64,000 nt of DNA, from contig CAVSOP010000006.1 of NCBI GenBank assembly GCA_963729635.1, positions 27,283 through 91,282 of the forward strand, read 5' to 3'. The DNA is from an uncultured archaeon (GTDB lineage: Archaea; Micrarchaeota; Micrarchaeia; Micrarchaeales; CABMGC01). The translations under genes and the position numbers were made by a program. Shown here piece by piece: positions 7,155-28,216 of this stretch (position 1 is its first letter; the number at the start of each line of letters is the position of its first letter). The notes beneath the pieces were generated by a model. That model worked only from the letters and a program-made list of their open reading frames with translations, ran no database searches and was not told the DNA's origin.

Positions 7155-8573
7155 GTGATTTGCGTGGGAGCTGAAGAAGCGCTTAATCTGCTGAAGGAGA
7201 AGAACGTAAAGTGGGTCGACGTCCAGTTCACAGACCTGCTCGGGAGGCTGCAGCACATAACCGTACCCTCGAAGGACTTCGACGATAAGTGCTTCGCGGA
7301 GGGATTCGGGAAGCTCGACGGGAGCAGCATAAAGGGCTTCACCTCGATAAACGAGAGCGACATGCTCCTGGTCCCGGTGCCGGAGACCATGACGATGATC
7401 CCTTGGATGGAGAAGACCGCCAGGGTCCTCGCCAACGTCCAGTGGGGCGGGGGGCGGGGCAGGTTCGAGAAGGATCCCAGATTCATAGCCGAGTCCGCCG
7501 AGAAATACCAGAGGGAGCGCGGGTTCAGCAGCTTCTACGGGCCCGAGCTGGAGTTCTTCATATTCGACAAGGTCGAGCTCGACGTCTCGACTCCTCAGAG
7601 CGGCACGTCCTACAGGCTGAGCTCGAGGGAGGCCCCATGGCAGAAGACCGGGAACTTCATGGTCAGGTACAAGGAGGGCTACTATCCCGCGCCTCCAGTG
7701 GACCAGCTGATGGGCGTCAGGATGGAGGCGGTCAACGCGCTCACGGACTATTTCGGATTCAACATAGAGGCCACGCACCACGAGGTGGCTACGGCTGGCC
7801 AGGGCGAGATAAACTTCACTTTCTCGACGCTGACGGATTCCGCCGACAAGGTACAGACGCTCAAGTACGTTCTGAAGAACATTGCCGCGAGCCACGACAT
7901 GGTCGCGACATTTATGCCGAAGCCCATGTTCGGGGACAACGGCACGGGCATGCACACCAATCTCAGCCTCTGGTCGGTAGACGGGAAGAAGAACGAGATG
8001 TACGACCCGAGCGACTCCTACGCCGAGATCAGCCAGACGGGGAGATACGCGATAGGAGGCATACTCGCCCACGCGCGGTCGCTCTCCGCGATCTCGTCTC
8101 CCACCACGAACAGCTACAGGAGGCTGATACCGGGATACGAGGCACCGGTCTACACGGCGTGGAGCAAGGCCAACAGGAGCGCGATAATAAGGGTGCCCGC
8201 ATACTACAAGGGGATGGAGAAGGCCAAGAGGATAGAGTACAGGGCCCCGGACCCTTCGGCGAACCCGTACCTCGCGTTCGCTGCGCTGCTAATGGCCGCG
8301 ATGGATGGCATAAACAAGAAGATCGAGCCTGCGGGGCACGTCGACGAGAACATATACCACCTCAGCAAGGACAGGAGGAAGGAGCTGAAGATAGGGGAGC
8401 TCCCGAGGTCCCTGGACGACGCGCTCGACGCCCTGGAATCCGACAGCGCGTTCCTGAAGCCGGTCTTCAACGACTCACTTCTGGACTCATACATCGAACT
8501 CAAGAGGGACGAGACCATGACGATGGCTCAGTACCCCCACCCGATGGAGTTGTACTACTATCTTGACGTCTGA
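7155..8573 (+). CDS. glnA: Glutamine synthetase type I
   Basis: Intact 472-aa ORF with GS hallmarks ([71 protein letters not shown]). GTG start is uncertain by a few codons. Confidence 0.95.
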
Positions 8574-9099
8574 GGGAGGACAGGACGGGGTGCGACTCCT
8601 CCTTATCCTCTACGCGGTTGAGATACAGCGCCGCGGCGAAGAGGTACGAGGACAGCCGGTTGAGGTATGCCTTGACATTGCCGTCCACCTGGTGGCTCCC
8701 GGCGGCCTCCAGCACGCTCAACTCGGCTTCCCTGGTCATGGCCCTTAATACGTGCAGCCGCGCCGCACCTGCGCACCCTCCCGGGTTTACGAAGCGCCCG
8801 GGACAGGGCACCACTTTCTCGATGACGTCCATGCGCGCCTCGAGCCGCGCTATCGGGTCTGCTAGGGCCCTGGAATCGCCGAGACCCGACAGCACTGCGC
8901 CTACCTCGAAGAGATCGTTCTGCACGCTCGCGAGCCCCGATCTGACGCGGCCGTCGCTCACGTAGCAAAGGGCCAGGCCGAGGCCGCTATTCAGCAGGTC
9001 TATGTCCGCCAGCGCGCGTATGATGGGATCAGTTTTGGGAACGGACTTGCCTAGGGCGAACGTCGTTCCCCCGTCACCGGCTCTGGTGTAAAAAGGCAT
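8500..9099 (-). CDS. pduO: PduO-type ATP:cob(I)alamin adenosyltransferase
   Basis: N-terminus [13 protein letters not shown] ... [10 protein letters not shown] ... [10 protein letters not shown] ... [13 protein letters not shown] matches the PduO/MMAB family. The C-terminal tail overlaps glnA convergently by 73 nt, so the true stop may be earlier. Confidence 0.85.
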
Positions 9100-17875: not shown

Positions 17876-19099
17876 ATGTTTATGGAAAAGATAAAGCAGA
17901 GCCAGATGAACATAGGCACCCTCGGCCACGTCGACCACGGGAAGACCACGCTGACCTTCGCCATAACCCACGCCTGGACCGACGTCCACAGCGAGAGCAT
18001 AAAGCGGAGCATGACCATCAAGCTCGGATACTCCGACGCGACGATATACCGCTGCGGCGAGAGCGGCTCGATGGAGTCCTACATCACCGAGGAGAAGTGC
18101 AAGGACGGCAAGGACGGCCGACGCCGGTCAGGAGGATATCGCTTCTCGACGCGCCCGGGCCACGAGACGCTCATGGCCACCGCCATAGCGGGGTCCAACA
18201 TAATAGACGCCGCGCTCTTCGTCATAGCCGCCACGGAGCCGTGCCCGATGCCGCAGACGAAGGAGCACCTGATGCTGATAAACGCGCTGGGGATAAGGAA
18301 CGTCATAGTCGTCCAGACCAAGGTCGACATAGTCGGCAAGGAGCAGGCGATGAAGCACCACGCTCAGATAAGGAACTTCATCAAGGGCAGCAGCATAGAG
18401 AACGCCGAGATAATACCGGTAATGCCGAACAAGAACATAAACGTCGACGCGGTGCTCGAGGCGATCGTGAAGATGGAGCTGCCCAAGCGCGACACCACGT
18501 CAGACCCCACGATGTACGTCGCGAGGTCCTTCGACGTGAACAGGCCGGGCACGAAGATGTCCGAGCTCCTGGGAGGGGTCGTCGGCGGATCGATAATAAA
18601 GGGGAAGCTCAAGGTCGGCGACGAGATAGAGATAAGGCCGGGCATCAACACTTCAAAGGGCGACAAGAAGAAGGTATCGTACTCGCCGATAATAACGACG
18701 GTCGAGAGCCTCCTCGCCGGGAAGGACCCGCTCGACGAGGCCATAGCTGGCGGGCTCATAGCGGTCGGCACGGACCTGGACCCGTCGTTCACCAAGGCCG
18801 ACGCCCTCGTCGGGCAGATGGTCGGGCGCGTCGGGAAGCTGCCCGGAGCCGGTCATGGAGATAGACGTCAAGTACACCTCGCTCGACAGGAACGACATCC
18901 CGAAGCAGGCCTTCAGGCCCAACGAGCCCCTCATGCTCGGCATAGGCACCGGCACGAACGTCGGCTACGTCAAGGTCGCCAAGAAGAACTCGCTGACCAT
19001 AGAGCTCAGGCACCCGGCGTGCATCGACAAGAACACGAAGGTCTCGGTGCTGAGGAACTTCTCGCAGAGGTGGCACCTCTCGGGCTACGGAGTGCTTAA
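17876..19099 (+). CDS. eif2g: Translation initiation factor aIF2 gamma subunit, apparent frameshift near 18845, 3' end approximate
   Basis: G domain NIGTLGHVDHGKTTL, DAPGHETLMATA-like RPGHETLM, and VQTKVDIV (NKxD-like). The C-terminal domain continues in ORF 18855..19298 (MEIDVKYTSL...RWHLSGYGVL). The conserved S6e-aIF2gamma neighbourhood is present. Confidence 0.9.
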   Translation: MFMEKIKQSQMNIGTLGHVDHGKTTLTFAITHAWTDVHSESIKRSMTIKLGYSDATIYRCGESGSMESYITEEKCKDGKDGRRRSGGYRFSTRPGHETLMATAIAGSNIIDAALFVIAATEPCPMPQTKEHLMLINALGIRNVIVVQTKVDIVGKEQAMKHHAQIRNFIKGSSIENAEIIPVMPNKNINVDAVLEAIVKMELPKRDTTSDPTMYVARSFDVNRPGTKMSELLGGVVGGSIIKGKLKVGDEIEIRPGINTSKGDKKKVSYSPIITTVESLLAGKDPLDEAIAGGLIAVGTDLDPSFTKADALVGQMVGRVGKLPGAGHGDRRQVHLARQERHPEAGLQAQRAPHARHRHRHERRLRQGRQEELADHRAQAPGVHRQEHEGLGAEELLAEVAPLGLRSA

Positions 19100-19184
19100 C
19101 GTGACTAGTCAGAGCAGGCCCAGCTTCTTCGACTTCGACACGATCGCTCCGAGAAGCCTCTTCCTTCCTGAAGCCTTGCCGATG

Positions 19185-20104
19185 TCATACTGCCCTCGGC
19201 ACCTCGAATCCCGCCGCGTGCGGATGGCCTCCGCCGCCGAACGCCATAGCCAGCGCGGTCATGTCGCTCTTGACGCTCCTGATGCTGGCAGTGCGTGAGC
19301 CGGTCTTGATCAGGATGCTTATGTCCGCACCAGTCCTGTCGAGCATCGCGCGGCAGGCGTCGCTCGAATCGACCTCCTTGGAGAATCCGACGGCCATCTT
19401 CCCCGAGACCACTTCCAGGCCGCCCAGCAGGGCCCTTATCCTCAGGTTATTGGTGCGCTCGTAGCTCTTCGCGGCGTCGCGCATGCTTCTTGTCGAAGAA
19501 CCTCCCCGAGCCGATGACATCGGCGATCCTCCTGAGCCGCTTCTGCCTTGCGTCGAACGAGCCCCCGCTGCCCAGGTGGTTTATGCTCATCGAGTACGTC
19601 CTTGCCGCGGAGCGGGACCATGAGGGGTTCGGCAGGGAATCGAAGCCCAGGAATAGGTCGATGCAGTGCACGAGGCCTGACGAACCTCTCCACGAAGTCG
19701 CCGGTGAGTCGGGTGTACTTCTTGGTTATGTCCGTGGCGCAGGCGCACCTGTTCTCCCCGACGATCGCGGTCTCGCACCTCCTTGGCTATCTCACTGAGT
19801 CGCCTGTCGCTCCAGTAGTGGTGGTCCAGCCAGACCACCGCGCCGCCCTTAGACCTGACAAGCCTGACGAAACGGGAGACAGTGGCGTGGCAGGTTCGGG
19901 TTCAGGGAGAGGTCCGTGAAGAACACGAGGGAGCCCTTCCCCAGGCGCGGCGCGATCCTGCGGATGGCGTCCTCGAAGTCCGCCAGCGAGTGGTTGACGA
20001 AGAAAAGGTCTGCCGGAGTCGAGGTGGTACCTCATCTTGAGCAGCGAGGCGCTGCCCACGCCGTCTATGTCGTCGGCATGGGAGACGACGAAAGTGCTTT
20101 CCAT
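19185..20104 (-). CDS. DHH/DHHA1-family phosphoesterase (NrnA/RecJ-like), several apparent frameshifts
   Basis: N-terminal MESTFVVSHADDIDGVGSASLL (DHH-type motifs) in ORF 19787..20158. C-terminal GGGGHPHAAGF (DHHA1 motif) in ORF 19185..19520. The middle lies in other frames. Confidence 0.7.
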
Positions 20105-20238
20105 GTTCTTATCTGCACGGCAAGAATAATAGAGCTTTTCGGGATCACGGGCGGGCACGCCTCCGGCTGGGGTCCATTACACTAATTGAAGGATTAGAAG
20201 GGCCTGGACTTGGGGGAAGTGCAGGCCCCTGGTCCCCC

Positions 20239-20798
20239 TTACGGGGGAGATACAATTAGTGTGTTGATCGCCTTGCCAGCATCATATTTGTAATAAACCT
20301 TGTGACCGAGCTGAAGCCTGTCGAGCAGGCCGAGCCTGTGAAGGTTGTTGAGCCTCGCGCAGGCGGCGTTATTGCCCTTGTAATTCATGAACGCCCTGAC
20401 CTCCTCGCGCGCACGCCATACCCTTCGTCTGCACGAAGTTTATCAGCTTGGCGTCGACGCCCGAGAGGGGCACCTCCCTGCTGTTCTGGGGGGCGTAGTC
20501 GTCCTGCTGCCCGCTCAGCTCCAGAGCGCTTATCTCGTCCTCCAGCTGCTTGAGCTTCAGGGTCACGTTTTCTAATATCCTATTAGTCTTCCCGCGCTCG
20601 TCCACCAGATACTTTATCAGCGTCGGACAGGCCGGCGTTCTCGGGGATCTCCTCTTGGTTCTTCTCGGAGACGACCTTGAGCTCCCTCCTGAGCTCCTCG
20701 ATCTCCTTTTCGACCTGTTTGTTGTCCATTCGACCATCCCCTGCGCGCATTCCAGATGCATCCCTGATACTTCCCTGATCCTTACCTGATGAGCTCAT
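20239..20798 (-). CDS. Coiled-coil plus winged-helix (MarR/TrmB-like) DNA-binding protein, apparent frameshifts
   Basis: MDNKQVEKEIEELRRELKVV... then LKLKQLEDEISALE and VDAKLINFVQTKGMACAEEVRAFMNYKGNNAACARLNNLHRLGLLDRL after frame correction. The stop lies inside the hairpin CCCCCTTACGGGGG. The start is uncertain (20729/20750/20798). Confidence 0.5.
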
Positions 20799-20873
20799 AA
20801 TTGATTCACGCCACAAGCATGAAACAATCATGAAACAATCATATGTAACGCTTGTCAAGATATTTAAACATTG

Positions 20874-20881
20874 CGTTTTTG
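20874..20881. repeat. 8-bp target-site duplication CGTTTTTG (left copy; right copy 25929-25936)
   Basis: An identical octamer directly abuts both terminal inverted repeats. 8 bp is the duplication length characteristic of the IS6 family. Confidence 0.85.
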
Positions 20882-20935
20882 GGTTCTGTCCATAAACTCG
20901 GCACCTAAATCATAGTGTCGCATTCGGCACCTGAG
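20882..20935. repeat. Left terminal inverted repeat of the IS6-family element
   Basis: GGTTCTGTCCATAAACTCGGCACCTAAATCATAGTGTCGCATTCGGCACCTGAG aligns with the reverse complement of 25876-25928. It contains two copies of the sub-repeat TCGGCACCT. Confidence 0.85.
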
Positions 20936-21593
20936 CGATATTGCTCTCTGAACTAAGTTTTATCAGGCTTAGCCACCTGTTTCTTTCGTTTCCTATGCTT
21001 ATTCCAGCGACCTCTGACGGCGTTAGCCCATTAAAGGTCTGGTGTGGTCTTACGAAATTGTAAAAGGTCTTCCAGTTCTCTATGTATCGCTTTGCGGTCT
21101 TTTCGCTCTTAAGACCACGAATGACCTTATCCCTTTCACGATAGGTCGCATGATACCTCTCTATGAGTTGGTTGTCCATCTTGCTTGTTGCGTGCAATAA
21201 ACTCTCGTCCTGCACGTTCAAGCCGTGTATCCTATGCCAACCTATCATAAACTCCCTTCTTATCGCCTTAGGGTAGAATTTGCCCTTGTCCGTCGCTATC
21301 TCTGTCGGTTTCTGCGATAGGTAAGGTTTAGCCTTCTGCATTATGCTTCTTGCGTCGTTTATGAACCTTGACTTTGTTATCTGGTTTGCGAGCAGGAAGC
21401 GTGTTTTGTTGTCAAGGACGTTCCAGCACCACTCATTCGCTTTGCCTATCTGCACCGATTGTTCGTCTATGTGTATCCTTTCGCTTGTCTGTGGCTTTAG
21501 GGTGTTGGTGTAATCGTTTATCCTTGACATGAAGCGGTTATAGCCTTCCACTAAAGTCTTCGGGGACAAAAATACATAAATCTGCGTTTCTGA
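20910..21593 (-). pseudogene. IS6-family DDE transposase, C-terminal (catalytic) fragment
   Basis: HIDEQSVQIGKANEWCWNVLD (D), IATDKGKFYPKAI (D) and NQLIERYHATYRERDK (E; compare IS26 NNVIECDHGKLKR). There is no ATG. The reading frame opens right at the IS630 boundary. Confidence 0.8.
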
Positions 21594-22651
21594 ATGTCAA
21601 CCGCGACCAGAAATGACCTTGGAAGAAGATTCTTCCACTTTGAATGAACTTGCAGAAAAGTCCAAGAGTGCGAAGGATTATGAGAGATTGAGGGTGCTAT
21701 ACGCAGTTAGCATCGGCAAATCTGTCAGAGAGATCGCGGAAATCTTTTGTATTGACGAGGACACTGTATATACATGGATAAAGAAGTGGAAAGAGAAAAG
21801 AAACGTGTTCGATGAACCGCGCAGTGGTAGGCCACCATCATTTACAGAAGAAGAGAAAAAGGAATTGAAGAAACTGATTGATGAGAACGACCCCGGTAAG
21901 CACGGCATGAATGCCAGTTATTGGGATACGAAGGAACTGACGAGATACTTCGTGAAGAAGGGAATAGATGTCTCTCAGGAGACGCTGCGAAGGACCCTCC
22001 ACGAGATGGGCGCGCACTACGTGAAGGCAGAGATACATTACAGCGAAGCAGATTTCGGAAGGCAGGCGGAATTTGCAAGGCAATTCCTATCTGATGTCGA
22101 GGAGAAACCCGCAAATGTCATAATTCTGTTTGGCGATGAGATGGGTGCCAACAGGTCACCAAAGAAGGGGTATGGATGGACCTTCAACAAGAGACTTGTC
22201 GTCAAGGCGCAGCAGTCCCAAAAGGAAAAGACGAATTGCTTCGGCGCGACAGATTCCATAAATGGCGATACGATACAAATGCAATCGAAGAGTGCAAAAA
22301 GCGATGCGTTTGTGAGGTTCCTACAGAAAATAAGCGCAAAATATCCCGATAACATTGTCTGGCTCTATTTGGACAACGGACAAGTGCACAAGTCGGTCAA
22401 AGTGAAGAAGTATCTTCAGAATAATCCGAATATAACCTTGAAGTTCCTTCCGCCCTACTCTCCAGACCTTAACCCGCAAGAACAGATGTGGAAACATGAA
22501 CGGCGGAAGTTCCTGAACAACAGGTGTTTTGATTCGTTACATCAGTTGTCTTTGTCATTGAACTGGTTCGTAAAGAGACTTGGAAAGGACGAAGTGCGTA
22601 GCGTCTGTTCACTCATTCCTATTGAACAGATGATTGTACCTCAGTACTGAT
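21579..22651 (+). mobile_element. IS630/Tc1-mariner-family insertion sequence nested in the IS6 transposase gene (boundaries approximate)
   Basis: It sits exactly between the two halves of the IS6 transposase. Candidate TA dinucleotides are at 21577-21578 and 22652-22653. I could not identify convincing TIRs. Confidence 0.6.
21613..22650 (+). CDS. IS630-family transposase
   Basis: Intact 345-aa ORF. N-terminal HTH (SVREIAEIFCIDEDTVYTWIKKW, RSGRPPS), then DDE-type core (ILFGDEMG, WLYLDNGQVHKS, LPPYSPDLNPQEQMW). Confidence 0.9.
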   Translation: MTLEEDSSTLNELAEKSKSAKDYERLRVLYAVSIGKSVREIAEIFCIDEDTVYTWIKKWKEKRNVFDEPRSGRPPSFTEEEKKELKKLIDENDPGKHGMNASYWDTKELTRYFVKKGIDVSQETLRRTLHEMGAHYVKAEIHYSEADFGRQAEFARQFLSDVEEKPANVIILFGDEMGANRSPKKGYGWTFNKRLVVKAQQSQKEKTNCFGATDSINGDTIQMQSKSAKSDAFVRFLQKISAKYPDNIVWLYLDNGQVHKSVKVKKYLQNNPNITLKFLPPYSPDLNPQEQMWKHERRKFLNNRCFDSLHQLSLSLNWFVKRLGKDEVRSVCSLIPIEQMIVPQY

Positions 22652-23237
22652 TACTTCTGTGGAATGCTATAATCCAGCGTCTTACTGTTTCATGGTGCAG
22701 TTTCAGACCAAAATTCTTATAGAGTGTGTCCTGAATATCCCTAAGCGAATTGCCCTTGTAATACATATCAAGGACAAGACAGACCATACGGGCGTTGCCC
22801 TTGATACCCTTAGTCGGGTCAAGGACAAAGAAGGTGTTGCAGGTCTGGCACTTGTATTTCTGTTTTGCACCCGATTTGTTCTTCCTCTTGCCTTTCTGTA
22901 TCAACTTGTCGCTCTTGCAGTTAGGGCATATTCTTTCGTCTGTTATACTTTCAACGTCAAAGTCTTCAAGTTCTACCTTGTTCTTTAGCTTGTTGAACAG
23001 GATTATCGACTGAATGTGCTTGCAGTATATTCCGTTTCCCCTGCATCTGCTTAGGTAATCGGGACAAGTGCAAGAATAGGCGTCTATGTGGCTTACTGTG
23101 TATTTCTTGGTGCCATCAGAGGAAGGCACCAGATAGACGCCTTCGCTTACTGTTTCTGGGACTGCCTTGTTTAGCAGAGCCGAAGCCCTTTCCTTCCTAT
23201 CGTCAGACAGCTTTTTCAGGTCTGTGTTTGCGTTCAT
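22641..23237 (-). pseudogene. IS6-family transposase, N-terminal fragment (SWIM zinc finger, zinc ribbon, HTH)
   Basis: CTCPDYLSRCRGNGIYCKH (SWIM-like CxCx(n)CxH), CPNCKS...CQTC ribbon, and SLRDIQDTLYKNFGLKLHHETVRRW (HTH). It terminates at the IS630 junction. Confidence 0.75.
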
Positions 23238-23264
23238 ATTTACACCTTCTTTGTTTCCTTCTGT

Positions 23265-23283
23265 TCTATATATAATATATAGA
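23265..23283. promoter_or_regulatory. 19-bp perfect palindrome TCTATATAT-A-ATATATAGA in the divergent transposase / RHH-methyltransferase promoter region
   Basis: 9+1+9 palindrome in the AT-rich 85-nt spacer between the transposase start (23237, minus) and the RHH start (23323, plus). Confidence 0.6.
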
Positions 23284-23322
23284 GCATATAGATATATATA
23301 CTTATTGGTTCATTACTTAATC

Positions 23323-23484
23323 ATGGGTAAAACAAAGAAACCTGAGGATAAGGCAATAACTAAGTCCATTACTATTTTACCTCGCCATGAGGAATATATA
23401 CAGTCTAATTTTATAAACTTGTCAAAGTTCGTGCAAGGCAAGATAGACGAGGAAATAAACAAAAAGAAAGGTGTTAAAAAATGA
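23323..23484 (+). CDS. Small ribbon-helix-helix-like DNA-binding protein (controller-like)
   Basis: 53 aa, MGKTKKPEDKAITKSITILPRHEEYIQSNFINLSKFVQGKIDEE. It follows a beta-strand then helix pattern like CopG/RHH proteins. Its stop overlaps the methyltransferase ATG (ATGA). Confidence 0.5.
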   Translation: MGKTKKPEDKAITKSITILPRHEEYIQSNFINLSKFVQGKIDEEINKKKGVKK

Positions 23485-25871
23485 CTGAGGACACCGAAAA
23501 GAAGTCTGAGATGGACGTTATTTTCAAGCAGATTGCACCAGTATTGGAGAAGTTGGGATATAGCGAAAAGGTCAAGGGAGAGATTGAGCATGAAAAGTCA
23601 ATTCAGATAGGTAAAGGCAAATACGTCTATCCAGACATAGTAATCAGCATTAAAGGCGTTCCTGTAATCGCCCTTGATGGAAAGAACCCAAACGAGAATT
23701 TAGACTTATACGAAAGGCAGATACTCGCTTATGGCTTGTTGCTAAAGACACCTTATTCAGTTCTATCAAATGGAAGCGTAATCAGGGTCTATGAGACACA
23801 AACAGAAAAAGTGATATGGGAAAAGGCGATAGACAAGACGCCGACCTTCCTCTCTAAAGAAAATCTAATCAAGAAGATAAGTAAGACAATAGAGACAGTC
23901 TCCGAGGAAAGACTGGAAGAAGCCAAGAAAACGCTGCTCGTCTTTGAGGGGATAAAAGAGTTCTCAAATATCCTATCAAAATGCGAAGACACAATAAGGG
24001 ATATTGATGGTCTAACTGGTGCTGACGCTTTTGATGAGATTAGCAAATTGCTTTTTACGAAGATGTATTTTGAGAAGAAGGCGATAGAGGGTGGTTCAAA
24101 CTTATTCTCGCTCACAAACATAAAGAGTAATGGCGGTGCGAAGTACGTGCGAGAGTATCTTTTCAAGGCAGCGAAGGACAACAACAAGGACATATTCTTA
24201 GGGAATGAGACGATAAAGCTGGAAGATGCGAGCATAGAAAAGATGGTCGGACTTTTGCAGGATTACACCCTCATACGAACAGATGTAGATGTTAAGGGCA
24301 AAGCGTTTGAGATATTCTTAGGGAAGACCTTTACTGGCGATTTGGGTCAGTTCTTTACACCAAGAACGATAGTTAGGTTTGCGGTGCTTTTTGCAGACCC
24401 AGAGATAAATTCGCCGATAGATGAGAAGGGCAAATCGCCCTATCTTGTCCTTGACCCTGCTTGTGGTTCTGGCGGTTTCCTCATAGAAATATTTAACGCC
24501 ATACTGGAAAAGATAAAACGCCAGCCAGCGAGCAAACAAGGCGAGCTATTTGAACAGCTTAGAATGAAGCAAATCTTCGGGATAGACATTAATGAACGCT
24601 TGGTCAGAGTAGCGAAAATGAACATGGTGCTACACGGGGACGGACACGGTGGCATATACAAAGCGAATGGACTGGAAGGAACAGATAACATCAAAGATGG
24701 CACGTTTGACCTCGTTATCACAAATCCGCCTTTCGGCAATAAGGACACCAAGCCCGACCTGCTAAAGAATTTTGAACTGGGAAAAAGAGAAGGCGCACCC
24801 ATGAAAGAGCAGCTAAGGGAGATACTTTTCGTTGAAAAATGCATTAATCTCTTGAAAGCGGGGGGGGGCGAGCTTGCAATTCTGTTGCCTGATGGGATAC
24901 TAAACAACGAAAGAGGAACGTATGTAAGAGACTTCATAAAGTCAAAGACCATAATCAAGGCAGTTGTCAGCTTGCCAGACAGGGCATTCAAAGCCACTGG
25001 TGCGAACAGCAAGACAAGCCTACTATTCCTCAAAAAGAAGTCTGATGAAAATGAGCCACAGCCACCGATATTCATGGCAGTTGCAGAGTATGTTGGTTAT
25101 GAGACACGGACAAAGGAAGCCAAGCAGATAGAGGCTAATGACCTTCCTAAGATACTGGACACTTACAAAGAATATAAGTCTGGCAAGTTCTTTGAGAACG
25201 TGAAAACAAAGACGGACACACTTGAGATTTTGCAGAATACACCTTCTTGTTTCCTGATAGGCACTGATTTTGTGAAGGACAGGATAGATGCAACTTACTA
25301 CTATGCGAAGTATATCTTTGAACTGGAAAAGGAAGGTTGCATAGTCAGTGATGTTGCGAGCAGGTCAGAGGTAATAGTCAATCCTCAGAAAGAACCCACA
25401 AAAGCGATAAGATACATTCAATACAGCAACATAGAGAAGAATTTGGGCGACGTGATAAATTACCTTGACTTATTGGGAGAGGAAGCACCATCAAGGGCAA
25501 AGCTGTTCGTGAATGCTGGTGATGTTATCGCTGCTAAGGTCAAAGACAGCGAGGAAAACATAGCGATAATCCCTAAGGAACTGGAAGGGTCAATAGTCTC
25601 ATCAGGGTTCGTAGTGGTCAAACCGATAAAACCCATGACCTCTGAAGCACTATTCGTATTGATGAGACTTAGAACCACCACCAATCAGGTCAGATGGAAG
25701 TCGTCAGGAACGATACTTCCCTCTATCTCCGATGAGGAATACATGACCATCAAGATACCCAAATTGACTGAAAAGGAGATAGAACGGATAACAAAAGAGG
25801 TCAAAGAAGTCAATATCCAAAGAGCAATAATAAAAGACACGCTCAACAAGCTCTCAGTAGAATTCAAGTGA
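23481..25871 (+). CDS. Single-chain R-M-S-like protein: HSDR_N/PD-(D/E)xK-like N-domain, gamma-class N6-adenine DNA methyltransferase, one HsdS-like target recognition domain
   Basis: Intact 796-aa ORF. N-domain YVYPDIVISIKGVPVIALDGK (PD...DxK). MTase motif I VLDPACGSGGFLIE and motif IV ITNPPFGNK. C-terminal TRD-like RAKLFVNAGDVIAAKV...SSGFVVVKP...ILPSISDEEYMTIKIP. Confidence 0.85.
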   Translation: MTEDTEKKSEMDVIFKQIAPVLEKLGYSEKVKGEIEHEKSIQIGKGKYVYPDIVISIKGVPVIALDGKNPNENLDLYERQILAYGLLLKTPYSVLSNGSVIRVYETQTEKVIWEKAIDKTPTFLSKENLIKKISKTIETVSEERLEEAKKTLLVFEGIKEFSNILSKCEDTIRDIDGLTGADAFDEISKLLFTKMYFEKKAIEGGSNLFSLTNIKSNGGAKYVREYLFKAAKDNNKDIFLGNETIKLEDASIEKMVGLLQDYTLIRTDVDVKGKAFEIFLGKTFTGDLGQFFTPRTIVRFAVLFADPEINSPIDEKGKSPYLVLDPACGSGGFLIEIFNAILEKIKRQPASKQGELFEQLRMKQIFGIDINERLVRVAKMNMVLHGDGHGGIYKANGLEGTDNIKDGTFDLVITNPPFGNKDTKPDLLKNFELGKREGAPMKEQLREILFVEKCINLLKAGGGELAILLPDGILNNERGTYVRDFIKSKTIIKAVVSLPDRAFKATGANSKTSLLFLKKKSDENEPQPPIFMAVAEYVGYETRTKEAKQIEANDLPKILDTYKEYKSGKFFENVKTKTDTLEILQNTPSCFLIGTDFVKDRIDATYYYAKYIFELEKEGCIVSDVASRSEVIVNPQKEPTKAIRYIQYSNIEKNLGDVINYLDLLGEEAPSRAKLFVNAGDVIAAKVKDSEENIAIIPKELEGSIVSSGFVVVKPIKPMTSEALFVLMRLRTTTNQVRWKSSGTILPSISDEEYMTIKIPKLTEKEIERITKEVKEVNIQRAIIKDTLNKLSVEFK

Positions 25872-25875
25872 TTTC

Positions 25876-25928
25876 CTCAGGTGCCGAATGCGACAAATTA
25901 GTTCAGGTGCCGATTATGCGACAGAACC
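25876..25928. repeat. Right terminal inverted repeat of the IS6-family element
   Basis: Reverse complement GGTTCTGTCGCATAATCGGCACCTGAACTAATTTGTCGCATTCGGCACCTGAG. It starts 5 nt after the methyltransferase stop codon. Confidence 0.85.
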
Positions 25929-26078
25929 CGTTTTTGGCCCGTACTTCCAATACTTCAAGCGCCAGGGGAGGGCCTTCCACGGGGATAATTGACAGAAAAG
26001 GCTATAAATGTTGAAAATGTAATGGGCAGGTGGCCTTCTGAAGGCGGAGGCGTTCCAGTTCCTGACGCAGTGATTACG

Positions 26079-26584
26079 ATGCAGCAATTCCTGATATCGG
26101 CGAAAAGGGCCAAGCTACTCGAGGACCCCACTCTCGTCAGCTCCATCTGCGAGCGCCTGGGGTGCGAGATCGCTCTGCGCGACGGGAAGGAGCTCGTCAT
26201 AACCGGGGACCCGTACGACGAGTACAACGCGAAGAACGTGATGCAGGCCTTCGCCCGGGGCTTCGACATCGAGACCTGCCTACAAGCTCCTCTCCGACGA
26301 CTACTACTTCAAGTCCATAGACCTGAAGGACATCTTCGACAAGAAGGAGAGGATCAGGAGGATAAAGGCCAGGATCATAGGCAGGGACGGCAGGGGCCAA
26401 GGAGTACATGCAGTCGATCAGCGGGGCGGAGCTCTGCGTCTACGGCAACACCGTGAGCGTGATAGGCACCGTCGACGAGCTGAGGATAATCAGCGCCGCG
26501 CTCGACATACTCATCGAGGGCGGGACGCACAAGAAGGCCTACGTCGTGATGGAGAAGACCAAGAGGAACGTCAGGGGAAGATGA
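26079..26584 (+). CDS. KH-domain RNA-binding/processing protein (Krr1/Pno1-like), apparent frameshifts
   Basis: MQQFLISAKRAKLLED...ITGDPYDEYNAKNVMQAFARGFD, continuing as IRRIKARIIGRDG and CVYGNTVSVIGTVDELRIISAALDILIEGGTHKKAY in other frames. A TATA-like CTATAAAT at about 26010 argues for the 26079 start. Confidence 0.65.
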
Positions 26585-28216
26585 GTATGGCGGACGAGGT
26601 AAAGACGTCGGAGGAGATATTCAAGGAGTTCAAGGAGCACTCCATAACCGAGTTCTTCAGGAAGAACAGCCAGATGCTCGGCTACTCCGGCAAGGTGAGG
26701 TCGCTCACAACCGTCGTTCACGAGTACGTCACCAACGGGCTCGACGCCTGCGAGGAGGCCAACATCCTGCCGAGCATAGAGGTCTCGGTCAAGGAGCTGG
26801 GCGAGAACAAGTACGGCATAGGCGTCCAGGACAACGGCCCGGGCATACCCAAGAAGATGGTCGGCAAGGCCCTCGCGTCGGTGCTCTCGGGCACGAAGTT
26901 CCACAGGTACATGCAGCAGAGGGGCCAGCAGGGCATAGGCGCAGCCGGGTGCACCCTCTTCGCGCTCATAACCACCGGCAAGGGCATACACGTCAAGGCG
27001 GGCACGGGCAAGGAGGCCTACGAGTGCGACCTCACGATAGACATCAAGTCCAACAAGCCGGTGGCGACCAACATCGTCGACCTGCCGGGCGACTTCCGCG
27101 GGCTCTACGTCTACGGCGAGTTCGGGGACATCAAGTACGAGAAGAGCGACCACGGGGTCTACGAGTACATAAGGAGGACTGCCCTCTCGAACCCCCACGT
27201 CAGCATCAAGCTCACCGAACCCGACGGCAACGAGGTCATCTTCCCGAGGTCAGTGGACACCATGCCGAGGAGGCCTAAGCAGATAAAGCCGCACCCGCTG
27301 GGGGTCAGCACCAGCGACCTGCTCGACTTCGCGAGGATGAGCGTCGAGCAGGAAGGTCTCGTCGTTCCTCGAGGAGGTCTTCTCCAGGATGACCCGCGAC
27401 AAGGTCAAGGAGCTGGCCGGACTGGCAAAGAAGGTGGACTTCGAGAAGGAGCCCAAGGACCTGACCTGGGCCGACGCCGAGGCGCTCGTCAGGGCCTTTA
27501 AGCAGGTCAAGTGGATAGCGCCGGAGATGGACTCGATGTCCACTATAGGCGAGGAGCAGATAGGCATCGCGATAAAGAACATAATCGACCCGACCTTCCA
27601 GAGCGTCGTCGAGAGGAAGCCGCGTGTCTTCAAGGGCGGCATACCCTTCGTAGTCGAGGTCGGGATAGCCTACGGGGGCAAGGCCGGGAAGTCCAACGGC
27701 CAGACTGTCTCTGGGAACGTGCTCAGGTTCGCGAACAAGGTCCCGCTCCTCTTCGACAACGGCAGCTGCGCGATAACCGAGGCCGTGGGGGGCGTCGACT
27801 GGAAGAGGTACTCGATAAAGAGGTTCGACGAGGAGCCAGTCAGCGTGCTCGTCAACGTCTCTTCCGTGTACATACCCTACTCAGGCGTCGGGAAGCAGGC
27901 GATAGCCCAGGAGGACGAGATAATCGAGGAGATAAAGCTCGCGGTAATGGACGCCGGGAGGAAGCTCGAGAGGTACCTCAGCGGCGAGCGCCACAGGAAC
28001 ATGCAGGCGACGGGCTACAACATGATAGTCAGGTACGTCGGGCAGCTCTCCGGGGACCTCAGCAGCATAACCGGCAAGAAGAAGGAGGAGATAGAGAAGG
28101 AGCTCAAGAGGCTGATAGACAAGAAGTACAAGAGCCTCTTCAAGGAGCAAAAGGAGGAGGCAAAGGAGAAGCAGGAAAAGCCGAGCGCGCCAGAAGAGCC
28201 AGAAGGAGAAGCGTGA
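26581..28216 (+). CDS. top6B: DNA topoisomerase VI subunit B, one apparent frameshift near 27351
   Basis: GHKL ATPase motifs (VHEYVTNGLDACEE, GVQDNGPGIP, RGQQGIGAAG), then transducer region in ORF 27389..28216. The ATG overlaps the KH gene stop. Confidence 0.9.

Follow-up and report, generated by a model that had tools for sequence, protein, structure and literature searches.

Insertion sequences (IS) of the IS6 family are typically 0.7–0.9 kb in length, although clades h and i reach 1.76 kb; they have one gene, inverted repeats of 14–20 bp and an 8-bp target duplication (PMC7986276). Their tips follow a pattern of GG, then cTGTt, then a caaa motif; the classical transposases are 213–254 amino acids (aa) long, and zinc-finger transposases of 340–350 aa and 450 aa are found in clades h and i (PMC7986276). 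Classical members mobilise cargo only when two IS copies form a pseudo-compound transposon, and in a 2021 review of the family ISDsp3 of Dehalococcoides was the sole member with a passenger gene (PMC7986276). Here we analyse a 64,000-nucleotide (nt) stretch of DNA from an uncultured archaeon (contig CAVSOP010000006.1; hereafter the window) containing a 5047-bp element that is very probably a cargo-carrying unit transposon, or "transporter IS", with a long archaeal IS6-type DDE transposase, a reading in which we include the mechanism and history proposed below.

In common with IS26, IS257/IS431, IS6100 and IS240 the element has a DDE_Tnp_IS240-type domain, GG tips followed by TGT, and an 8-bp duplication; however, those classical elements have one gene and a transposase of 213–254 aa, whereas this one is 3.9 kb long without a nested IS630 insertion, has three genes and 54-nt ends with two sites each, and encodes a transposase of 398 aa to which two further N-terminal domains are added. 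The zinc-finger members of clades h and i are alike in having an N-terminal zinc-finger extension before the helix-turn-helix and DDE core, but they are bacterial, 1.2–1.8 kb long and described without cargo, whereas the clade of our element is archaeal, adds a SWIM-like domain and has cargo as the rule. ISDsp3, which we compare by its description only, likewise holds a passenger gene within a single IS6-type element (a "tIS"), but it is a single-copy case with one hypothetical gene, whereas a whole clade is concerned here, with cargo that is diverse and largely of defence type. Finally, the pseudo-compound transposons and translocatable units of IS26 are similar in that IS6-type enzymes move genes without a role in transposition; there the cargo lies between two directly repeated IS copies, whereas here it lies within one inverted end pair.

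Boundaries and genes of the window element

The element occupies window positions 20882–25928 and has a guanine-plus-cytosine (GC) content of 0.433, compared with 0.597 in the remaining window. The nonamer GGTTCTGTC occurs at two sites in the whole window, 20882 (+) and 25928 (−), and forms the tips of terminal inverted repeats of 54 nt on the transposase side (20882–20935, +), where the repeat contains the transposase stop codon, and of 53 nt on the cargo side (25876–25928, −). These arms are 83.6% identical over 55 alignment columns, and a blastn search of the element against the whole window returned the inverted end pair as the sole match (E = 2.4e-8). The octamer CGTTTTTG abuts both tips, at 20874–20881 and 25929–25936, as the left and right copies of a target-site duplication. 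The AT-rich segment, the imperfect repeats of about 54 bp and the identical flanking octamers had all been proposed in a preliminary description made from the DNA letters, and all three held up when measured. Within each end there is an outer and an inner repeat: the inner one, the 18-mer GTCGCATTCGGCACCTGA, is exact at 20917–20934 (+) and 25877–25894 (−), and two matches to it were found in 0 of 100 shuffles, while the outer one is well preserved on the cargo side (GTCGCATAATCGGCACCTGA, 25903–25922, −) and degenerate on the transposase side (GTCCATAAACTCGGCACCTAA, 20888–20908, +). A degenerate outer repeat of the GTCCATAAACTCGGCACCTAA type is also kept at the transposase-side end of the related elements L002, L003, L004 and L009, which are introduced below. 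The two sub-repeat copies per end given in the preliminary description were thus found, with a spacer of 0 or 2 nt in place of the 1–2 nt stated there. The tip of the window element, GGTTCTGTCGCATAA, fits the IS6 tip pattern, the agreement being with the pattern and not letter by letter. An Rfam search of window positions 19000–28000 identified no match.

The site without the element was found in two metagenomes from different studies. A contig from run X1 (depth 3) joins 20873 directly to 25929, and a contig from run X10 (depth 4) has the same joint, with 67 nt on its shorter side and 9 shared letters. As the skipped 5055 bp equal the 5047 bp of the element plus 8 bp, leaving one octamer, we read this joint as the empty site, which bears out the simple insertion claimed earlier. 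In run X1 the depth of the element (5–6) is below that of its flanks (9–13), so the insertion is polymorphic, in keeping with filled and empty alleles being mixed. The junction support that had been sought was also obtained: short-read contigs from several soil and peat metagenomes span both outer junctions and both junctions of the nested IS630 element, and the right junction, together with the methyltransferase fusion gene, is contained in L001, an independent contig of 3.7 kb that matches at 99.8% identity.

Three genes lie inside the inverted repeats: an IS6-type transposase gene, a 53-aa open reading frame (ORF) and a 796-aa methyltransferase fusion. The transposase gene, on the minus strand, is split over two ORFs, 22641–23237 (N-terminal) and 20910–21569 (C-terminal), by an IS630-family element, and removal of 1131 bp (the IS630 element and one TA) restores a 398-aa frame and gives an intact element of 3916 bp. 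The catalytic DDE part of the gene proper (20910–21540, −) matches Pfam DDE_Tnp_IS240 (PF13610) with 61 bits against a cut-off of 27, and rve_3 with 38.5 bits; the N-terminal part (22672–23237, −) matches a SWIM zinc finger and a zinc ribbon, and also has a helix-turn-helix. A structural model of the transposase (mean pLDDT 76.7) places a SWIM-like domain, the zinc ribbon and a three-helix bundle before an RNase-H-type core that resembles the ISCth4 transposase, retroviral integrases, MuA and TnsB, and a PDB sequence search with the transposase gave no match. Residues D214, D273 and E316 are invariant across 39 homologues, and the N-terminal module is common to 658 representative proteins at E ≤ 1e-3. 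The best NCBIfam family for the rebuilt transposase was transpos_IS6 (112 bits), with IS1 second. In a tblastn search of plasmids, the annotated matches listed were all called IS6 family transposase, the best being that of Clostridium perfringens, aligned over residues 104–379. The transposase domain, the tips and the 8-bp duplication together sustain the IS6-type assignment first suggested from the ends.

The 796-aa protein (23481–25871, +) is intact and combines in a single chain a nuclease-like N-terminus, an N6-adenine methyltransferase domain (N6_Mtase PF02384, 149 bits, with an NPPF motif) and one specificity domain (residues 634–775), which matches HsdS 5ybb_D at 1.7e-18 and PADLOC Specificity_I at 9.5e-16. 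Its closest solved relative is the BsaXI RM subunit, with type I HsdM also matched; matches to the named models MAD2 and HsdM were far under their cut-offs. In addition, the N-termini of five divergent cargo enzymes of this kind preserve D...(D/E)xK, the K being invariant. Based on these Pfam, NCBIfam, PADLOC and PDB matches and the D...(D/E)xK comparison we describe the protein as a type IIG-like restriction-modification fusion; as judged by sequence, it resembles type IIG and other single-chain restriction-modification-specificity enzymes in its methyltransferase core, HsdS-like domain and putative PD-(D/E)xK-like N-terminus, but has a single specificity domain only. The fusion gene is 97.6% identical at the amino acid level to that of L004, with 177 synonymous and 19 non-synonymous codon differences, which means that it is under purifying selection. 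The protein probably has a role in defence, as an element-stabilising addiction module, or both. We also observed a contig of run X2 that joins the right end of IS630 (22674) to 24861 within the methyltransferase gene, with 10 unmatched letters between, and X1 contigs that are one base short at 24381 and at 24860; some cells may have a second IS630 hit or a frameshift in this gene.

The 53-aa ORF (23323–23484, +), putatively ribbon-helix-helix (RHH)-like, overlaps the start of the methyltransferase fusion by 4 nt, and as the latter starts within the stop of the small ORF the two are probably co-transcribed. Pfam and NCBIfam searches with the window's 53-aa protein identified no match. In L004, L010, L012, L014 and L033 a homolog of the small ORF immediately precedes the transposase gene in divergent orientation; L019 has one in the opposite orientation, and L002 and L009 have a 47–48-aa zinc-ribbon ORF at this position. 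Because the small ORF is found beside the transposase also in relatives with no restriction gene (L010, L012, L014 and L033), it is a core gene of the element and not cargo. The preliminary description was right to place the methyltransferase inside a single repeat pair, but the gene that it called RHH and listed as a second passenger belongs with the transposase. A role of the small protein solely as a restriction "controller" was considered and found unsupported, given its presence in elements that have no such genes. The small ORF and the transposase gene are separated by an AT-rich divergent intergenic region (23238–23322) with palindrome arms at 23265–23273 and 23275–23283, presumed to hold the promoters and an operator; in a comparison of the window with L004 the intergenic region is identical at 97 of 97 positions, and the adjacent transposase DNA is only ~80% identical. 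In L010, L033 and L014 (e.g., L010 1318–1396) inverted copies of TATACGTATTAT / ATAATACGTATA surround a TATA-like centre between the small ORF and the transposase start, and are candidate operators for the small protein.

Related elements and their ends in other archaea

Searches with the rebuilt transposase identified more than 200 homologs of ~385–400 aa in Micrarchaeota, "Marsarchaeota", Woesearchaeota, other DPANN lineages and Thermoplasmata. In the three closest relatives a large methyltransferase fusion adjoins the transposase gene, and both lie within ends of the same kind: L002 (transposase 92% identical to that of the window, cargo protein of 785 aa, target duplication CGATGTTA), L003 (84%, an Eco57I-type cargo protein of 1130 aa, GAATAAGG) and L004 (84%, 796 aa, GCTTTAGA). 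The fusion gene is divergent from the transposase gene in L002 and L004 and has the same direction in L003. The L004 element has the transposase, small ORF and methyltransferase in the gene order of the window, at a different site and with a different 8-bp duplication. Copies with the methyltransferase outside the repeats, which would have spoken against the preliminary description, were looked for in these relatives, and in them the gene is inside, at differing sites with 8-bp duplications of their own.

We scanned relatives more widely using one genome per species, and identified 147 encoding loci; 80 of these were retrieved, 49 with enough flank, and their hosts are DPANN lineages, Thermoplasmatales, Methanosarcinales, Methanoregula and Nitrosopumilales. 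With matching tips and a perfect 8-bp duplication as the requirement, we could bound 26 distinct relatives of 2175–7743 bp (median ~3.8 kb); this strict criterion bounded 21 of the 49 well-flanked loci. All 26 contain extra ORFs besides the transposase gene, no bare member was found among the bounded elements, and in 40 unresolved loci there was no IS6-type repeat pair closer than 2 kb. The suggestion that members of the clade always carry cargo is drawn from this bounded subset and the negative search for short inverted-repeat pairs. A detector for two-site ends identified further ends in 25 loci, the cargo-side end never lying less than 600 bp upstream of the transposase. What the preliminary description called an unusual transporter-IS is thus a transporter-IS, as judged from the empty site lacking the whole unit, the same gene order in L004 and the cargo of the 26 bounded relatives, but it is no singular oddity, being one member of a clade with cargo in every bounded element. 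A literature search returned no description of this clade, with ISfinder and many subscription papers outside its reach, so that an earlier description is possible; the clade is apparently undescribed, as well as widespread in DPANN and other archaea.

When the larger cargo ORFs were scanned with Pfam, nine of the 27 bounded elements (window included) proved to have restriction-modification genes. These were single chains of HSDR_N, N6_Mtase or Eco57I, and a specificity domain (the window, L002, L003, L004, L029 and L046), N6_N4_Mtase fused to Mrr_cat (L009 and L075), and a ResIII helicase with N6_N4_Mtase (L022). Other cargo included AbiEi with a nucleotidyltransferase (L065), a ParB_N protein (L081), proteasome-like proteins (L068 and L073) and, in many elements, small membrane or unknown proteins. 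Core and cargo have been recombined, as the ranking of L002 and L004 is opposite for the two genes: the window transposase is nearer to that of L002 (92.5% identical) than to that of L004 (81.9%), whereas the methyltransferase fusion is 97.6% identical to that of L004 and 23.5% identical to that of L002. At the DNA level the match between the window and L004 is ~92% in the methyltransferase fusion gene, complete over the 97 intergenic positions and ~80% in the transposase gene.

Every end of the bounded elements has an IS6-like tip, most of the form GGnnnTGTC(G/A)CA(A/T)A; one subclade has CTCTCTGTC instead, and the Methanoregula group GGTTCTGGTGC. The tip is followed by a box of 7–9 nt, and the TGTC...box unit occurs again 28 or 39 nt inward, the inner copy being significant against shuffled controls (p ≤ 0.01) in 41 of 54 ends. 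The boxes vary between elements (TCGGCACC, TCGTCAG, ATGGACTT, CGGGTGAT, CGTGACTT and others); within one element the box agrees at all four sites, and it is common to elements with similar transposases. Such a pattern would be expected if these were sites bound sequence-specifically by the transposase and evolving together with it. The long repeat of the window element is a two-site end, outer plus inner, of a kind found across the clade. Among the 26 relatives and the window element the outer-to-inner distance is 28 nt at cargo-side ends and 39 nt at many transposase-side ends; the two ends are non-equivalent, since these spacings differ by about one helical turn. Ends with more than one site for transposase binding are known from Tc3, Sleeping Beauty (inverted repeat/direct repeat, IR/DR), Mu and Tn7. 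Our element resembles these in its outer and inner repeats, which are predicted binding sites with spacings about one helical turn apart, but their DDE enzymes are unrelated or distant and their duplication lengths are different.

Several further observations were made on single relatives. The exact 17-mer TGTCGCATTCGGCACCT was scanned in metagenome contigs and found at 103 loci, with the full end structure only in L171; the absence of end structure at the others, at that database size, argues that they are chance matches. L171 (430–1207, a JGI metagenome contig) is a truncated copy with a 249-aa transposase remnant, an intact transposase-side end and an adjoining unrelated transposase-like ORF. 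Three predicted viral contigs in IMG/VR (L190, L191 and L192) encode distant relatives of the transposase (37–38% identity), around which a scan could draw no bounded element; such contigs are possible vehicles between cells. L063 (55–6020) and L066 (5149–9604) have GGG tips and 9-bp direct repeats (TGAAATAAT and TTTAGGGGA, respectively) instead of 8-bp ones. In L086 a third copy of the end sequence is located 1.1 kb outside the bounded element (3243, 4367, 10221), and in L012 (197–2697) the duplication ACAGAACG looks like an element tip; both patterns suggest insertion beside or into older copies. Lastly, L003 has a perfect 40-nt inverted copy of a piece of its transposase gene in the intergenic stretch upstream of the same gene (7750–7789 / 9014–9053), and the 55-aa "small ORF" called in that relative is probably an artefact of this rearrangement.

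Nested IS630 element and host genome

The IS630-family element that interrupts the transposase gene is 1129 bp long (21541–22669, +), with imperfect inverted repeats of 17–20 nt (the 20-nt arms are 85% identical) and a duplicated TA at 21539–21540 and 22670–22671. Its 345-aa transposase (21613–22650, +) matches NCBIfam transpos_IS630 (NF033545) with 223 bits against a cut-off of 100, and Pfam DDE_3 with 95.7 bits. The boundaries are fixed by a related transposase gene in run X10, which is uninterrupted and has a precise TA..TA joint (21538 to 22670). In run X1 the depth of the IS630 element is ~70 compared with ~9 for its flanks; this roughly eightfold excess, together with the many different flanks in that run, shows IS630 to be multi-copy, and we conclude that it is active and multi-copy in the sampled community. 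The loose ends in X1 include at least five different right-hand flanks, and most IS630 copies have an additional G following 21561. As IS630 splits its transposase gene, the window copy of the transposon is defective and unable to move alone.

The host is a high-GC Micrarchaeota-like archaeon of soil or peat. The aIF2-gamma protein of the window is closest to Micrarchaeota proteins (74% identity to the best named matches and 94% to one metagenomic protein), and for this reason we rejected the idea, raised by the GC step, of a transfer from a DPANN symbiont into a host of a different phylum. In the region 19800–27000 there are many 1-bp insertions or deletions in the window relative to short-read contigs from the same strain (e.g., at 19891, 20009, 20146, 20406, 20624, 26279, 26391 and 26585), and there are apparent frameshifts in the host genes for aIF2-gamma, a topoisomerase VI B-like protein and a KH-like protein to the right of the element (ORFs 17876–19099 and 26581–28216); these are probably homopolymer errors of the long-read assembly rather than true pseudogenes. 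Contigs of X1 and X2 also skip 155 bp within 26483–26639, in the host gene region right of the element, the alternatives being variation between strains and a local duplication made in assembly.

Competing readings, proposed mechanism and meaning

Several points weigh against a cargo-carrying IS6-type unit transposon as proposed here. All members of the clade are known from sequence alone; 28 of the 49 well-flanked relatives were not bounded by the strict criterion; and the empty site, taken by itself, fits precise loss as well as insertion. The nuclease domain of the cargo protein scores 24.2 bits against HSDR_N, just under the cut-off of 25.1, and three homologs of the small ORF match CcdA only at E ~0.03, under threshold, with a single-sequence model of the 53-aa protein giving one long helix. 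The NCBIfam IS6 score of the rebuilt transposase is below the curated cut-off of 125, and the protein is only 22–29% identical to classical, annotated IS6 transposases.

The last two points, and the second rank of IS1, also favour a separate transposon family that merely resembles IS6, a sister of IS6/IS1-type DDE elements with its own chemistry, e.g., cut-and-paste or non-cointegrate. So do the additional SWIM-like domain, the 9-bp duplications in L063 and L066, and the departure from family norms: the ends of the window element are 53/54 nt with two repeats each instead of 14–20 nt, the clade spans 2.2–7.7 kb compared with 0.7–0.9 kb (PMC7986276), and the window element, without IS630, has three genes in its 3916 bp where one gene is the norm. 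We nevertheless consider this explanation unlikely, as the DDE_Tnp_IS240 score is well over its cut-off, the tips follow the IS6 pattern of GG, (c/t)TGT and an A-rich stretch, the duplication is of IS6 length, and the zinc ribbon-helix-turn-helix-DDE region aligns to a zinc-finger clostridial IS6 transposase, a type accepted in the family (PMC7986276). Because domain, tip and duplication agree with IS6 and only size, gene number and repeat length do not, the element is best filed as a cargo-carrying variant of the IS6 kind and not as a separate family, formal classification as a sister family of IS6 being a minority possibility.

Far less probable is a mobile unit of the transposase and short ends only, with the methyltransferase adjacent by chance or left from a decayed two-element composite. 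The dependence of classical IS6 elements on two IS copies to mobilise cargo (PMC7986276) would lead one to such a reading, but the element has one transposase gene of its own and one end pair, with no copy of the end repeat between transposase and methyltransferase; the empty site lacks the whole 5047 bp; L004 repeats the gene order at another site with another 8-bp duplication; and no short IS6-type repeat pair surrounds the transposase in the 40 unresolved relatives. That the AT-rich block arose in assembly, as a chimera in which foreign DNA was wrongly joined to a high-GC contig, is scarcely credible in spite of the sharp composition step and the many 1-bp differences from short-read contigs that suggest an error-prone long-read assembly, since independent short-read contigs from several runs span the left, right and both IS630 junctions and the boundaries match the inverted repeats and duplication to the base.

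For the cargo-carrying IS6-type transposon we hold the structural conclusions with high confidence; the mechanism is proposed by analogy and from sequence patterns. In the intact form the gene for the 398-aa transposase reads to one end, and the small ORF and cargo read in the opposite direction from a common 85-bp region presumed to hold the promoters; the cargo may use the small-ORF promoter, and the small protein may regulate both divergent promoters. Each end of ~54 nt has two ~18-nt repeats composed of TGTCGCA and an element-specific box of ~8 nt, and transposase molecules are predicted to occupy both repeats, outer and inner, at either end. Recognition of the tip and of the conserved TGTCGCA half would follow other IS6 elements, and recognition of the variable box would fall to the additional N-terminal domains. 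Synapsis of the ends would be followed by joining to the target with an 8-bp stagger. If the element follows IS6/IS26 (PMC7986276), a replicative cointegrate would form and be converted by host homologous recombination to a simple insertion with an 8-bp duplication, and a longer element would offer more homology for this resolution. The compact, self-sufficient single-chain restriction enzyme could serve as both a defence and an addiction module. As to its history, the element would have entered the genome of a Micrarchaeota-like archaeon with 60% GC, at a site between two divergent genes, after which the multi-copy IS630 entered the transposase gene, leaving the window copy stranded with its methyltransferase fusion gene intact and selected.

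IS6 elements are textbook minimal insertion sequences, and cargo in every bounded element of this clade changes the view of what IS6 elements are capable of. The clade provides a concrete route by which defence genes, including those for single-chain restriction-modification enzymes, can spread among DPANN archaea with small genomes, in which mobile elements are poorly known, and its two-site ends with their co-varying box offer a natural system in which to ask how a transposase discriminates between its own ends and related ones. The copy in the window represents the later life of such an element, stranded by IS630, with its restriction gene selected and with filled and empty alleles in the same soil and peat populations. 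Beyond this, we see an even chance that the clade is a distinct, unclassified archaeal branch of the IS6 type: obligate cargo carriers with IR/DR-like two-site ends, a private recognition code made up of the box and the N-terminal domains, a small gene of DNA-binding type (RHH-like or zinc ribbon) as obligatory partner, and cargo modules that are interchangeable and made up mostly of restriction-modification and other defence genes. If this is true, these elements would be a main vehicle of defence-gene flow in DPANN and neighbouring archaea.

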